The translations under genes and the position numbers were made by a program. Positions 7,806 to 8,398 of a DNA stretch of 32,000 nt are shown here, in pieces. A model generated the notes under the pieces. That model saw only the letters and a program-made list of their open reading frames with translations, was not told the DNA's origin and made no database searches. Origin of the DNA: Gemmata obscuriglobus (GTDB lineage: Bacteria > Planctomycetota > Planctomycetia > Gemmatales > Gemmataceae); assembly GCF_008065095.1 (NCBI RefSeq), contig NZ_CP042911.1, positions 1,260,001-1,292,000 of the forward strand, in the 5' to 3' direction. Numbering within the stretch: position 1 is the stretch's first letter; every line of letters begins with the position of its first letter.

Positions 7806-7903
7806 AGTGTCAATCGCCTGCACGACTCGTGCGGCCCGCTCGCCCGGCGTTCATCGCACTGATTCGGAGACAGCCCGTACCCTACGGCGGAAGCGTACAA
7901 ACC

Positions 7904-7978
7904 CTTTTAATCTGTTGGTCACAGGTTCGAATCCTGTCCCGCCCTCTGGGCGGGTAGCTCAATCGGTAGAGCAACGGA
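7904..7978 (+). ncRNA. Circularly permuted tRNA-like module 2 (Lys-like, anticodon-loop sequence CUUUUAA)
   Basis: Elements in order:
- loop CTTTTAA (7904-7910)
- anticodon-stem 3' strand TCTGT (7911-7915)
- variable region TGGTC
- T-arm ACAGG-TTCGAAT-CCTGT
- 3' acceptor strand CCCGCCC (7938-7944)
- 3-nt loop TCT
- 5' acceptor strand GGGCGGG (7948-7954), a perfect 7 bp
- D-arm TAGCTCAATCGGTAGAGCA
- anticodon-stem 5' strand ACGGA (7974-7978), which pairs with TCTGT
The rejoined sequence closely resembles bacterial tRNA-Lys(UUU). Confidence 0.7.
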
Positions 7979-8063
7979 CAGTTTCACCGCTTCACGAACT
8001 TGTACGGGCCTATTTTCAGACAACCGGGGCCAGTCCGTACCCCACAGGGGAAGCGTACAAACC

Positions 8064-8151
8064 AATAAGTTTCAGCACGCGAAAGCGTATGCGGGTTCGA
8101 CTCCCGCCGGCGCCCGCACGGGCGCCGTGGCGAAACGGTATACGCACTGAA
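8064..8151 (+). ncRNA. Circularly permuted tRNA-like module 3 (type II, Leu-like; loop AAUAAGU reading UAA at positions 34-36)
   Basis: Elements in order:
- loop AATAAGT (8064-8070)
- TTCAG (8071-8075)
- long variable arm ACGC-GAAA-GCGT
- T-arm GCGGG-TTCGACT-CCCGC
- 3' acceptor strand CGGCGCC (8108-8114)
- short loop
- 5' acceptor strand GGCGCCG (8121-8127), extendable to 8-9 bp
- Leu-type D-arm TGGCGAAACGGTATACGCA
- CTGAA (8147-8151), which pairs perfectly with TTCAG. Confidence 0.65.
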
Positions 8152-8239
8152 GAGTTTCAACCGCTTCCCGGACTTGTACGGACCGCTTTCTCGAACACCG
8201 AACCAACCCGTACCCGACGTCCGCCGGCGTACACACTTT

Positions 8240-8330
8240 ACGGTCTCGAAAACCGTCGATCGGGCGACCGATCCGTGGGTTCGAATCCCACCTCCTCCAC
8301 CTCGGGGGAGTGGCCGAGTGGTTGAAGGCA
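8240..8330 (+). ncRNA. Circularly permuted tRNA-like module 4 (type II, Ser-like, anticodon-loop sequence CUCGAAA)
   Basis: Elements in order:
- complete anticodon arm ACGGT-CTCGAAA-ACCGT (8240-8256)
- variable arm GATCGG-GCGA-CCGATC
- T-arm GTGGG-TTCGAAT-CCCAC
- 3' acceptor strand CTCCTCC (8292-8298)
- 5-nt loop ACCTC
- 5' acceptor strand GGGGGAG (8304-8310), giving 7 bp with one G-U
- Ser-type D-arm TGGCCGAGTGGTTGAAGGCA (8311-8330). Confidence 0.7.
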
Positions 8331-8398
8331 ACGCCCCGCAAGGGGAGTAAGTGTCCCGGAAGGGACTCGCCGACGGAACTTGTACGGGTGGACTTTCA

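Follow-up and report, generated by a model that had tools for sequence, protein, structure and literature searches.

What are the complementary flanks that bracket four tRNA-shaped modules in the genome of Gemmata obscuriglobus, and what might the RNAs that they close be doing? The modules lie in tandem on the + strand at positions 7685–8389 of the window, i.e., the 32,000-nt stretch of contig NZ_CP042911.1 that was analyzed here and to which all coordinates refer. An initial annotation had noted the flank helices, and suggested that they could represent either the Ro60-binding stem of a Y RNA or a processing signal. Each of the four units (Met-, Lys-, Leu- and Ser-like, in this order) consists of a three-helix basal stem, termed the ‘handle’, topped by a circularly permuted tRNA cloverleaf. 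Spacers of 24–36 nt separate the units, and the array ends 66 nt 5' of a Ro60-like ORF.

Array layout and a conserved three-helix handle

The features of the locus, all on the + strand, are as follows.

7643–7667, +: promoter-like motif 5' of unit 1; GAACCT (7643–7648), ~16 nt, then (G)TCC
7685–7843, +: unit 1, Met-like (handle and permuted tRNA-like domain), with a 147-nt core at 7691–7837
7685–7724, +: unit 1, handle 5' strand; outer arm 7691–7699 (extendable from 7685), CCAAC 7700–7704, middle arm 7709–7713, TACAAAC 7715–7721, inner arm 7720–7723
7725–7800, +: unit 1, tRNA-like domain; complete anticodon arm 7725–7741 (loop CTCATAA), T arm 7747–7763, closed 7-bp acceptor 7764–7782 (loop ACTAC), D arm 7785–7799
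7801–7843, +: unit 1, handle 3' strand; inner GTGT 7807–7810, middle GCCTG 7816–7820, ACTCG 7825–7829, outer arm GTGCGGCCC 7829–7837 (extendable to 7843)
7873–8009, +: unit 2, Lys-like
7873–7903, +: unit 2, handle 5' strand; outer GCCCGTAC 7873–7880, CCTAC 7881–7885, middle GAAGCG 7890–7895, TACAAAC 7896–7902 (inner AAAC 7899–7902)
7904–7978, +: unit 2, tRNA-like domain; anticodon-loop-like CTTTTAA 7904–7910 as a 5' bulge, anticodon stem in trans 7911–7915/7974–7978, T arm 7921–7937, closed acceptor 7938–7954 (loop TCT), D arm 7957–7972
7979–8009, +: unit 2, handle 3' strand; GTTT 7981–7984, CGCTTC 7988–7993, ACTTG 7998–8002, GTACGGGC 8002–8009
8034–8182, +: unit 3, Leu-like (class II)
8034–8063, +: unit 3, handle 5' strand; TCCGTAC 8034–8040, CCCAC 8041–8045, GGGAAGCG 8048–8055, TACAAAC 8056–8062
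8064–8151, +: unit 3, tRNA-like domain; non-canonical 7-mer AATAAGT, anticodon stem in trans 8071–8075/8147–8151, variable-arm hairpin 8077–8088, T arm 8091–8107, closed 8-bp acceptor 8108–8127, 3-bp D stem 8130–8145
8152–8182, +: unit 3, handle 3' strand; GTTT 8154–8157, CGCTTCCC 8162–8169, ACTTG 8172–8176, GTACGGA 8176–8182
8206–8389, +: unit 4, Ser-like (class II)
8206–8239, +: unit 4, handle 5' strand; ACCCGTAC 8206–8213, CCGAC 8214–8218, middle CGGCG 8225–8229, TACACAC 8230–8236, inner ACACTT 8233–8238
8240–8329, +: unit 4, tRNA-like domain; complete anticodon arm 8240–8256 (loop CTCGAAA), variable-arm hairpin 8258–8273, T arm 8275–8291, closed acceptor 8292–8310 (loop ACCTC), D arm 8313–8329
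8330–8389, +: unit 4, handle 3' strand with two extra hairpins; CCCC-GCAA-GGGG 8334–8345, inner AAGTGT 8349–8354, hairpin CCC-GGAA-GGG 8355–8364, middle CGCCG 8368–8372, ACTTG 8378–8382, GTACGGGT 8382–8389
8398–8425, +: intrinsic-terminator-like hairpin between unit 4 and the ORF; 8 pairs (7 G-C) and a T run
8455–10197, +: Ro60-like gene (580 aa), helical-repeat region and vWA domain; ribosome-binding site GGAGG ~8 nt upstream

The helices first proposed for the Lys module hold in full, with 6/6 pairs between GAAGCG (7890–7895) and CGCTTC (7988–7993) and 4/4 between AAAC (7899–7902) and GTTT (7981–7984). Those of the Leu module are likewise complementary, both AAAC (8059–8062) with GTTT (8154–8157) and GAAGCG (8050–8055) with CGCTTC (8162–8167), the latter extendable to 8 bp (8048–8055/8162–8169). 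For the Ser module, the altered inner helix (ACACTT 8233–8238/AAGTGT 8349–8354) stands at 6/6 pairs, but the second proposed pairing, CCGG (8224–8227) with CCGG (8356–8359), is complementary yet superseded by CGGCG/CGCCG (8225–8229/8368–8372) and the hairpin at 8355–8364, both of which are kept in orthologues with compensatory changes. For unit 4, RNAalifold on 8 orthologues recovered 48 pairs, and compensatory changes occur in 14 of these. The flank helix of the Met module, which the initial annotation had left undefined, is now resolved: the outer helix has 9/9 pairs (7691–7699/7829–7837) and can reach 15 bp (7685–7699/7829–7843), the middle one 4/5 (7709–7713/7816–7820) and the inner one 4/4 (7720–7723/7807–7810). 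Folding of the full units supports these structures (z-scores of -3.0, -4.0, -3.3 and -2.7 for units 1–4, that of unit 1 for its core); for unit 2 the minimum free energy structure equals the centroid and contains all three handle helices.

Two motifs between modules, CCGTACCC and ACTTGTACGG, had been taken for spacer hairpins. They pair instead within each unit as its outermost closing helix: pairing of the outer arms is perfect in 54/64 cases within a unit vs. 4/32 across spacers, which rules out a model in which the 3' motif of one unit pairs with the 5' motif of the next. Both outer arms are still present at 15 loci with a single unit. The internal loop, described earlier as a conserved GTAC, actually reads N-UACA(A/C)AC with a variable G; it occurs in 42 of 43 permuted modules that were detected without reference to the flanks.

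From outside to inside, the handle thus comprises an outer helix of 7–9 bp (CCCGUAC/GUACGGG), a large conserved internal loop (5' CCNAY-GGC.., 3' ..GCG-ACUUG), a middle helix of 5–8 bp with a nearly invariant AGC/GCU core, the UACA-containing loop and a short inner helix. The single-stranded motifs CCNAY, UACAAAC and ACUUG are strongly conserved.

Covariation in an alignment of 107 units from ~60 genomes establishes the outer and middle handle helices. The outer helix is paired in 89% and the middle, GAAGCG-type helix in 79%, with double changes at all 17 pairs of the two and double-sided changes in 8/8 pairs of the GAAGCG-type helix (107 flank pairs). None of 500 shuffles reached the observed covariation, and pairing fell from 75% to 27–41% in slid controls. 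A mutual-information scan of all column pairs, with no structure supplied, returned exactly the pairs of these helices as its top 11. Among units taken with no selection on complementarity, 80/104 form 7/7 outer pairs (vs. 23% with shuffled partners). The inner AAAC/GTTT helix is paired in 37% at fixed alignment columns; its 5' side is invariant and hence uninformative for covariation.

These data bear directly on whether the array could be debris, i.e., decaying tRNA pseudogenes or repeats with chance complementarity, as might be suspected from the blank results of ARAGORN and of Rfam at its gathering threshold. Compensatory covariation across phyla, the mutual-information scan and an absolute strand bias (188 units on the gene strand vs. 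0 on the opposite strand, across 553 kb) effectively refute this idea, and the elbows and stems of the tRNA-like domains are intact as well.

Permuted tRNA-like domains and alternative modules

The tRNA-like domains are near-complete, circularly permuted cloverleaves: a loop caps the acceptor stem, and the termini of the RNA leave the fold at the 26/27 junction in the Met and Ser units and inside the anticodon stem in the Lys and Leu units. ARAGORN finds no tRNAs in the window as it stands, and calls the forms un-permuted in silico as tRNA-Met(cat), tRNA-Lys(ttt), tRNA-Leu(taa) and tRNA-Ser(cga). Three of these four have a canonical 7-nt anticodon loop, while the Leu-like form has an A at position 33. 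None of the window units has lost a stem or an element of the tRNA elbow. Their order of T arm, loop-closed acceptor and D arm is that of 75 of the 185 units in the family.

Other modules occur on the same handle elsewhere. These include modules in normal tRNA order without a free acceptor end, T-arm-only modules, plain hairpins and, at one locus (L055), a mimic of 23S rRNA H42–44 (the GTPase centre) that matches LSU rRNA positions 1077–1160; this match rules out the resemblance to RNase P RNA that we had considered for the same module. A second rRNA-like module, GACGGTC(C/A)TAAGGTAGC, is found at two loci (L025 and L208) and has no Rfam match. The modules without a free acceptor end, the T-arm-only modules, the hairpins and the rRNA mimic, all on one handle, speak against a role in decoding.

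They also weigh on the possibility that the array encodes true tRNAs, as do the permuted genes of Cyanidioschyzon merolae; this would require cutting out the handle, joining the ends and opening the acceptor loop to yield tRNA-Met, -Lys, -Leu and -Ser. Permuted tRNA genes of C. merolae and some archaea share with the window units a cloverleaf 3' half encoded upstream of the 5' half, and the ARAGORN calls, the three canonical anticodon loops and the length of the acceptor stems (7 bp, or 8 bp for Leu) are in line with this origin; a 7-bp acceptor stem makes YrlA of Mycobacterium smegmatis an RNase P substrate (PMC4201824). However, the anticodon loop is not conserved between orthologous units (CTTTTAA, CAATTAA or CCATTGG in Lys-type units; ‘anticodons’ CGA, TTT or CAA in Ser-type units), and that of the Leu-like unit lacks U33. 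The Met and Ser units are broken at 26/27, which is no known splice position, and there is no BHB motif; neither a splicing endonuclease nor a ligase gene was found among the linked genes, and no bacterial counterpart of that endonuclease is known (bioRxiv 10.1101/312249). Unlike those of permuted tRNA genes, the flanks here also carry modules without an acceptor end, non-tRNA modules and the rRNA mimic. We regard maturation into functional tRNAs as very improbable.

The downstream Ro60-like gene and its linkage to the units

Searches of Pfam, NCBIfam, PDB sequences and PADLOC with the window protein gave nothing usable, and the Pfam TROVE domain (PF05731) matched neither this protein, even at E-values up to 10, nor any of 30 homologues. 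Its identity as Ro60-like therefore comes from structure prediction and Foldseek. The AlphaFold (AF2) model is of moderate confidence (pLDDT 75.8, pTM 0.59), and its best eight Foldseek matches in the PDB are all Ro60 (human, Xenopus, Thermus phage; E = 6e-9 to 1e-5), with 588–623 aligned columns, a probability of 1.00 and TM scores of 0.40–0.57 at an identity of only 10–14%. Subsequent matches cover the vWA domain only, and nothing else aligns at full length. The window protein is thus predicted to have the Ro60 architecture of a helical-repeat ring and a C-terminal vWA domain. In the latter, DKSGS at residues 371–375, which fits the MIDAS-like pattern DxSxS, is largely invariant (D371, K372, S373, S375). 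The Pfam vWA_Ro60 model (PF25045) matches 9 of 30 homologues, one of them (P0065) above the cut-off, and not the window protein. Homologue P0065 also matches PHROG 850 (‘RNA-binding protein’) over nearly its full length, and the best PDB profile match is Thermus phage Ro60, albeit weak (E = 0.16).

Linkage between units and gene runs in both directions. Starting from the gene, at least one strict unit lies within 1.3 kb upstream at 56 of 72 loci. Starting from the RNA, 120 metagenome contigs were retrieved by the 5' handle pattern alone, and 78 of the 84 testable ones carry the gene ≤2.5 kb downstream on the same strand. The remaining six have handles and no gene in the available sequence, two of them within arrays of 13–15 tRNA genes. 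Loci hold 1–8 units; in a huge phage the number is 10 or more. Besides Planctomycetota, the arrangement extends to several other phyla and to this phage; among the species genomes scanned, at least 598 have the gene, and the protein family comprises 916 clusters at 50% identity. Five of six viral contigs and a 595-kb phage also have the unit–gene arrangement; in viral contigs, a protein-based search found loci, and the exact handle pattern gave no match. No conserved partner genes were found in the flanks, except for a small ORF in some lineages that is absent from the window.

Sequence elements around the array suggest how it may be expressed. The promoter-like motif reads CTCC at 7664–7667 in the window, and an alignment of 11 Gemmataceae loci shows no variation in its GAACC and TC and keeps the G in 10/11; it may resemble ECF-sigma promoters (GAAC-N16/17-GTC). 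A sigma-70 promoter scan found none. The terminator-like element, GGCCGC...GCGGCC-TTT, likewise follows the last unit in Gemmataceae loci. Four Y-RNA-like ncRNAs would then probably be made as one transcript, from the motif at ~7643–7667 to the hairpin at 8398–8425, and may subsequently be processed into single units.

This layout could also be that of a cis-acting mRNA leader, in which the Ro60-like protein binds the handles and controls read-through of the terminator at 8398–8425, thereby regulating its own synthesis. Units lie upstream on the gene strand, as the strand count attests, and the conserved terminator-like hairpin sits between array and start codon. Some units, however, are downstream of the gene (4595–4685 in L013 and 4572–4666 in L016) or far off inside tRNA arrays, the number of units and their widely different modules vary greatly among loci, and a leader has no need of elaborate tRNA mimicry. 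An autoregulatory leader thus appears improbable.

A somewhat stronger, though still unlikely, alternative is that the handle serves chiefly as a processing and stability stem that allows endonucleolytic release from a polycistronic precursor and protects the ends, the neighbouring protein playing no specific part. Tandem units with short spacers, the occasional mixing of units with canonical tRNAs in large arrays, the single-precursor processing of YrlA and YrlB in M. smegmatis (PMC4201824) and the six gene-less contigs would all fit. However, units and Ro60-like gene are very tightly linked, on one strand and in both directions, the canonical tRNAs of the same arrays carry no handle, and the conserved CCNAY, UACAAAC, ACUUG and AGC/GCU core are more suggestive of a site that a protein recognises by its sequence than of a generic duplex. 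Processing and Ro60 binding can, moreover, coexist, and a role of the stem in defining the ends of the processed RNA is compatible with a Y RNA.

Relationship to known Y RNAs

The proposal that the flank helices are a Ro60-binding stem gains support from the Ro60-like ORF next door, the two-way linkage and sub-threshold matches to YrlA. Helices established by covariation, the tRNA-like architecture, the genomic linkage and the predicted fold together lead us to favor a variant of the Y RNA/Ro60 ribonucleoprotein, formed by the handle RNAs and their putative downstream partner, as the likely identity of the system, with binding and function extrapolated from known Y RNAs. With four tRNA-shaped domains on a conserved stem and an adjacent gene for a predicted Ro60 fold, the locus appears to represent a branch of the bacterial Y RNA/Ro60 system that is widespread and has not been described before.

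YrlA and YrlB of M. smegmatis come from a single precursor (PMC4201824), and YrlA RNAs, whose genes adjoin Ro60 on the same strand, have been likened to circularly permuted tRNAs with closed acceptor stems (PMC4201824; bioRxiv 10.1101/312249). The window units resemble YrlA (RF02553; Salmonella, M. smegmatis, mycobacteriophages) in the adjacent Ro60-type gene (within ~4 kb, same strand), the long stem formed by the 5' and 3' ends, the distal tRNA mimic ordered T arm, closed acceptor, D arm, the class II-type long variable arms and the presence of several Y RNAs per locus (PMC4201824; bioRxiv 10.1101/312249). More generally, the own ends of each unit pair into a long stem with a conserved region, as in Y RNAs. 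Unlike YrlA, the units score at most 51.6 bits, so that nothing in the window reaches the gathering threshold of 69 bits: the sub-threshold scores are 51.6 bits on unit 2 (7884–7996, E = 1.7e-10), 41.4 on unit 1 (7739–7807), 18.7 on unit 3 (8090–8145) and 15.5, the second window E-value being 1.5e-07. At other loci YrlA scores of 34–44 bits fall on the tRNA-like cores. The Ro-binding motif of YrlA, GNCGAAN0-1G (the proposed Rsr recognition site), is present in 0/4 window units and 3/185 family units. The handle has its own motifs instead (CCNAY, AGC-N-UACAAAC, GCU and ACUUG), and arrays reach 8 units, or at least 10 in the huge phage. The window units also exceed the ~80–130 nt of classical Y RNAs (PMC4201824), at about 137–184 nt between the outer helix ends (unit 1 spans 159 nt if its helix is extended); across the family, lengths range from 68 to 344 nt with a median of 139 nt.

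We counted the missing TROVE domain and GNCGAAN0-1G motif, the low identity to solved Ro60s (10–14%, TM ~0.45–0.57), the sub-threshold YrlA scores, the oversize units and the 6/84 gene-less contigs against the Y RNA reading, along with the terminator-like hairpin between array and gene.

YrlA of Salmonella and Mycobacterium and Yrn1 of Deinococcus link Ro60 to its partners and control access to its cavity. Modelled on these, the handle may be where the Ro60-like ring protein of the adjacent gene docks, and the tRNA-shaped domain a putative effector that recruits or titrates tRNA-recognising factors. Yrn1/Yrn2 and the Rsr–Y RNA–PNPase complex (RYPER) of D. radiodurans are likewise modular, with a Ro-binding stem and an effector; the tRNA-like elements of Yrn1 have the other orientation to the RNA ends (PMC4201824), which parallels the normal-order units of other loci. 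In contrast to RYPER, the linked genes here include none for PNPase or another partner, and there is no sequence similarity.

More tentatively, and in our view doubtfully, the system could constitute an unrecognised RNP family in which a divergent Ro60-fold protein works with handle-plus-cargo RNAs, the handle being a universal adaptor for swappable mimics of translation RNAs. The cargo would then comprise class I and II tRNAs (permuted and normal), T-arm-only modules and at least one mimic of the 23S GTPase-associated centre, in arrays of up to ~10 units that often lie within tRNA arrays, those of huge phages included. Such a platform could be a decoy or sensor for tRNA- and rRNA-targeting enzymes and toxins, or deliver them to the Ro60 ring.

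Bacterial Y RNAs have been catalogued by searching beside TROVE-annotated genes (PMC4201824); the handle RNAs, although abundant, were missed by this approach since their protein is not recognisable by sequence. One handle with many modules, including two tRNA topologies and the rRNA GTPase-centre mimic, offers a natural comparative series on what the modules recruit. Gemmata obscuriglobus is cultured, so that pull-downs and RNA mapping could be attempted, and a new RNA family model could be seeded directly with the handle consensus.

Metazoan Y RNAs and Ro60 share with the present system the end-formed stem and the (here predicted) Ro60 fold of the protein, but their 5'-strand GGUCCGA and bulged-C helix are absent here, and a tRNA mimic replaces the pyrimidine-rich loop. 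The ACUUG of the handle 3' strand, directly 5' of the closing helix, may resemble the CACUUGAC(U/C) of human Y RNAs. An ACUUG-plus-helix arrangement is also seen in the Rfam consensus of YrlA; its closest counterpart in the handle is the outer helix, first taken for spacer hairpins, and not the GAAGCG helix.

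Permuted tRNA-like modules of the window

The four tandem units (Met-, Lys-, Leu- and Ser-like) and the gene that follows them are arranged as listed below.

Features of the array and downstream gene (window positions)
7685-8389, + strand: four tandem units, the central domain of each a circularly permuted tRNA cloverleaf
7844-7872, 8010-8033, 8183-8205 and 8390-8397, + strand: true spacers, after the outer helices
8398-8425, + strand: terminator-like hairpin between the last unit and the ORF
8455-10197, + strand: Ro60-like ORF, 580 aa, starting 66 nt past the last unit

Neither ARAGORN nor Rfam at gathering threshold found a tRNA or RNA family in this region. 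When the halves of each module were joined in silico and a CCA tail was appended, ARAGORN classed the products as tRNA-Met(cat), Lys(ttt), Leu(taa) and Ser(cga), justifying the names used in the initial annotation. The modules run in the order anticodon-arm region, variable region, T arm, closed acceptor stem and D arm, with TTCGAAT or TTCGACT as the T loop, GG in the D arm and a 3-5 nt loop capping the acceptor stem, which has 7 bp except in the Leu-like unit, where it has 8. In the Met- and Ser-like units a full hairpin makes up the anticodon arm, with the RNA ends exiting the cloverleaf at the 26/27 junction. The two RNA ends of the Lys- and Leu-like units pair in trans to make the anticodon stem, and the 7-mers CTTTTAA (Lys-like) and AATAAGT (Leu-like) form a 5'-side bulge, as initially described. 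Anticodon-loop sequences differ between orthologous units and the hairpins persist with compensatory changes, which argues for mimicry of tRNA shape rather than decoding.

The handle and its covariation

Each module sits on a handle, a basal stem of outer, middle and inner helices formed by the two flanks. The positions and complementarities initially given for the flank helices were correct throughout, and the proposed stems formed in folds of the full-length units (z = -3.0, -4.0, -3.3 and -2.7, dinucleotide shuffles). Among 80 related genomic loci gathered via the downstream protein, repeated units with the same flanks were found on the gene's strand and upstream of it. The consensus 5' flank is CCCGUAC-CCNAY-GGCNN-(G)AGC-N-UACAAAC, followed by the variable module, and the 3' flank is GCU(Y)-NNGCG-ACUUG-GUACGGG. 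For the flank alignment, 104 units were detected with single-strand anchors only, complementarity never being a selection criterion; 5' and 3' flanks were joined by an artificial A12 linker and the 3 other window units were added (n = 107).

Handle helices in the flank alignment
Outer helix: columns 1-9 / 80-88; 89% paired; both-side changes in 9/9 pairs
Middle helix (initially described as GAAGCG/CGCTTC): columns 18-25 / 66-73; 79% paired; both-side changes in 8/8 pairs

None of 500 shuffles of the 107-unit alignment reached any of the observed pairing and covariation measures, and pairing was 27-41% instead of 75% when the partner was slid by 1-3 columns. In an unsupervised scan of mutual information across all column pairs (average-product correction), the top 11 were these helix pairs and no others. 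The covariation proposed for the GAAGCG/CGCTTC helix is thus borne out, with all eight pairs double-changed in 107 units and a score that no shuffle of 500 equalled. The outer helix was paired at 7/7 positions in 80 of the 104 anchor-only units (shuffled partners, 23%), its compensatory variants including CCCGUAC/GUACGGG, CCCGCAC/GUGCGGG, CGCGUGC/GCACGCG, GCCGUUC/GAACGGC and others. The middle helix has an AGC/GCU core that is ~90-97% conserved even though detection did not rely on it, and both handle motifs accompany 42/43 permuted modules detected without use of the flanks.

The initial description was largely correct, with revisions to the spacers, the Ser pair and the loop. The conserved internal loop is present, as N-UACA(A/C)AC rather than GUAC. 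CCGTACCC and ACTTGTACGG, read at first as spacer motifs that pair between modules, are the two outer-helix arms of one unit: pairing across spacers is perfect in 4/32 cases vs 54/64 within a unit and was rejected, and single-unit loci (n = 15) still have both arms. The CCGG/CCGG pair of the Ser unit is unsupported because eight orthologues maintain, with compensatory changes, a middle helix of CGGCG (8225-8229) and CGCCG (8368-8372) and a separate hairpin, CCC-GGAA-GGG (8355-8364). By direct reading, the Ser-type inner helix ACAC(UU)/(AA)GUGU becomes AUGC/GCAU in two loci (L009 and L010). The flanks of the Met unit, for which no convincing helix had been assigned, form all three (outer, 9-15 bp; middle, 4/5; inner, ACAC/GUGU).

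The true spacers start with a U-rich tract (CTATTTTCAGACAAC, CCGCTTTCTCGAACAC, GGACTTTC), and orthologous loci have similar YTTTC-CGAACA sequences; possible roles are as single-stranded sites for processing or as 3' tails. Within the large internal loop of the handle (alignment A2), columns 12-75 read A·G in 49 cases and G·A in 19, and columns 15-74 read G-C in 43 and C-G in 16. This non-Watson-Crick covariation suggests loop-internal pairs or two handle subclasses (ACGGC...GCGAC vs ACCGC...GGAAC).

Module diversity and linkage to the gene

Module classes among 185 detected units
Permuted T-acceptor-D order: 75
T arm alone, by a crude motif: 55
Short, YrlB-like hairpins lacking a tRNA motif: 45
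Normal tRNA order: 7
D motif alone: 2
23S rRNA GTPase-centre mimic: 1

In normal-order units the inner helix of the handle replaces the acceptor stem, so they have no free acceptor end. The rRNA mimic, the sole case in 208 sequences (1.09 Mb), is in an Armatimonadota MAG (L055), where a unit with an intact handle (2527-2733) carries a module (2614-2696) matching positions 1077-1160 of the bacterial LSU rRNA model (48.6-54.3 bits, E ~1e-13), which correspond to 23S helices 42-44, the L11-binding GTPase-associated centre. Two long non-tRNA modules (L025, 2303-2480; L208, 1681-1993) share GACGGTC(C/A)TAAGGTAGC, presumably resembling the 23S region around helices 69-71; neither module had an Rfam match.

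A strict detector found 188 units on the gene strand and 0 on the opposite strand in 553 kb; upstream sequence sufficed at 72 loci, of which 56 have 1-7 units inside 1.3 kb. In the reverse direction, metagenomes were scanned for nothing but the 5' handle pattern, which gave 120 contigs; the Ro60-like ORF lies ≤2.5 kb downstream on the same strand in 78, is missing in 6, and 36 are too short to judge. Two of the six gene-less contigs have units interleaved in arrays of 13-15 canonical tRNA genes. The gene-plus-units layout recurs in 5/6 IMG/VR contigs and in the 595-kb uncultured phage LR756511.1 (L208, 840-4278), with at least 10 handle units upstream of the gene. The phage Ro60-like gene is 60% identical, the handle variant is low-GC (CCGUCC...GGACGG) and some units are apparently nested within another unit's module.

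Directly upstream of the units and Ro60-like gene in L035, L036, L042, L043, L046, L052, L053, L055 (2-3 kb upstream), L120 and L126 are large arrays of 7-17 canonical tRNA genes on the same strand; several lineages are represented, among them Phycisphaerae/Tepidisphaeraceae, Pirellulales and Armatimonadota. The handle units of L120 and L126 are interspersed among the tRNA genes. A small conserved ORF ending ...DRH..GN(L/I)T(V/I)RPEAVFG*, not present in the window, is found immediately before the units at many loci outside Gemmata (L013, L016, L019, L021, L030, L049, L053, L079), and one JGI contig has a 75-aa ORF at this position with a ThiF-family gene nearby.

The Ro60-like protein and comparison with YrlA

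The terminator-like hairpin and a GGAGG ribosome-binding site lie between the last unit and the ORF, whose product had no significant match in Pfam, NCBIfam, PADLOC or PDB sequences. Its family is large, with 2540 matches from one search and 916 representative clusters from a second; the best match that carries a name points to Gemmata obscuriglobus as the origin of the window. An AlphaFold2 model (30 homologues as input, pLDDT 75.8) was searched against the PDB, where the top eight structural matches are Ro60 without exception (human, Xenopus and Thermus phage phiLo; ~590-620 aligned columns, E = 6e-9 to 1e-5, identity 10-14%), and those that follow cover the vWA domain only. Weak signals agree with this predicted fold: 9/30 homologues match Pfam vWA_Ro60, one (P0065) matches PHROG 850 'RNA-binding protein' over nearly its full length, and the best PDB profile match is the phage Ro60 (colinear, E = 0.16). 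Pfam TROVE was never matched among the 30 homologues. The named G. obscuriglobus protein C1280_28060 (P0008, 437 aa) spans only 75% of the ORF and homologues align from residue 1; the start in the deposited gene model is probably too far downstream. Residues 416-447 (window 9700-9795) are two 16-residue copies of a tandem repeat that overlaps a low-confidence model segment (411-447) and is missing in most homologues (~500-535 aa vs 580 aa here).

[quoted passage not shown] 2014, PMC4201824). YrlA is a close tRNA mimic that 'lacks the anticodon loop', often has class II-like variable arms and resembles circularly permuted tRNAs (Wang et al., bioRxiv 10.1101/312249). The window units share its architecture and score 51.6 and 41.4 bits with Rfam YrlA, below the threshold of 69. 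Unlike YrlA, they are without GNCGAAN0-1G, have handle motifs of their own, often keep anticodon arms and have a proposed partner whose likeness to Ro60 escapes sequence methods. The shared architecture, the Ro60-like fold and the RNA-gene linkage support the Y-RNA reading first put forward. Our full-text literature search found no publication connecting Ro60 or Y RNA with Planctomycetes or Gemmata, and a handle with varied modules beside a hidden Ro60-like protein is of real interest to specialists.

Working from the demonstrated helices, tRNA-like fold and RNA-gene linkage and the predicted Ro60-like fold, and by analogy with YrlA and Yrn1, we propose that the array would be transcribed from a conserved GAACC-N16/17-(G)TC motif to the terminator and processed into single units, each docked by its handle on the Ro60-like ring, with the tRNA-shaped module engaging tRNA-recognising factors. 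The 7-bp acceptor stems make RNase P and the CCA-adding enzyme candidates. One candidate contact site is the outer helix preceded by ACUUG, an arrangement that the Rfam YrlA consensus also has and that resembles the one in human Y RNAs. A second candidate is the 5' strand ACGGC..AGC, for which cmscan gave an alignment with the 5' strand of YrlA.

The promoter-like motif, GAACC(T)-N16/17-(G)TC then CGAAC, lies at 7643-7679 upstream of the first unit and is conserved in 11 Gemmataceae loci, the window having CTC where others have GTC; we take it to resemble ECF-sigma promoters. The stretch from an upstream gene of the zinc-type alcohol dehydrogenase family (6279-7274) to the array contains a long, near-perfect inverted repeat (7405-7492), with arms of ~38 nt that include three ACAGGAT repeats (GACAGGATCGACAGGATAAACAGGATGAA and its mirror), which could be a terminator or a protein-binding site; a related sequence occupies the matching position in one related locus (L001).
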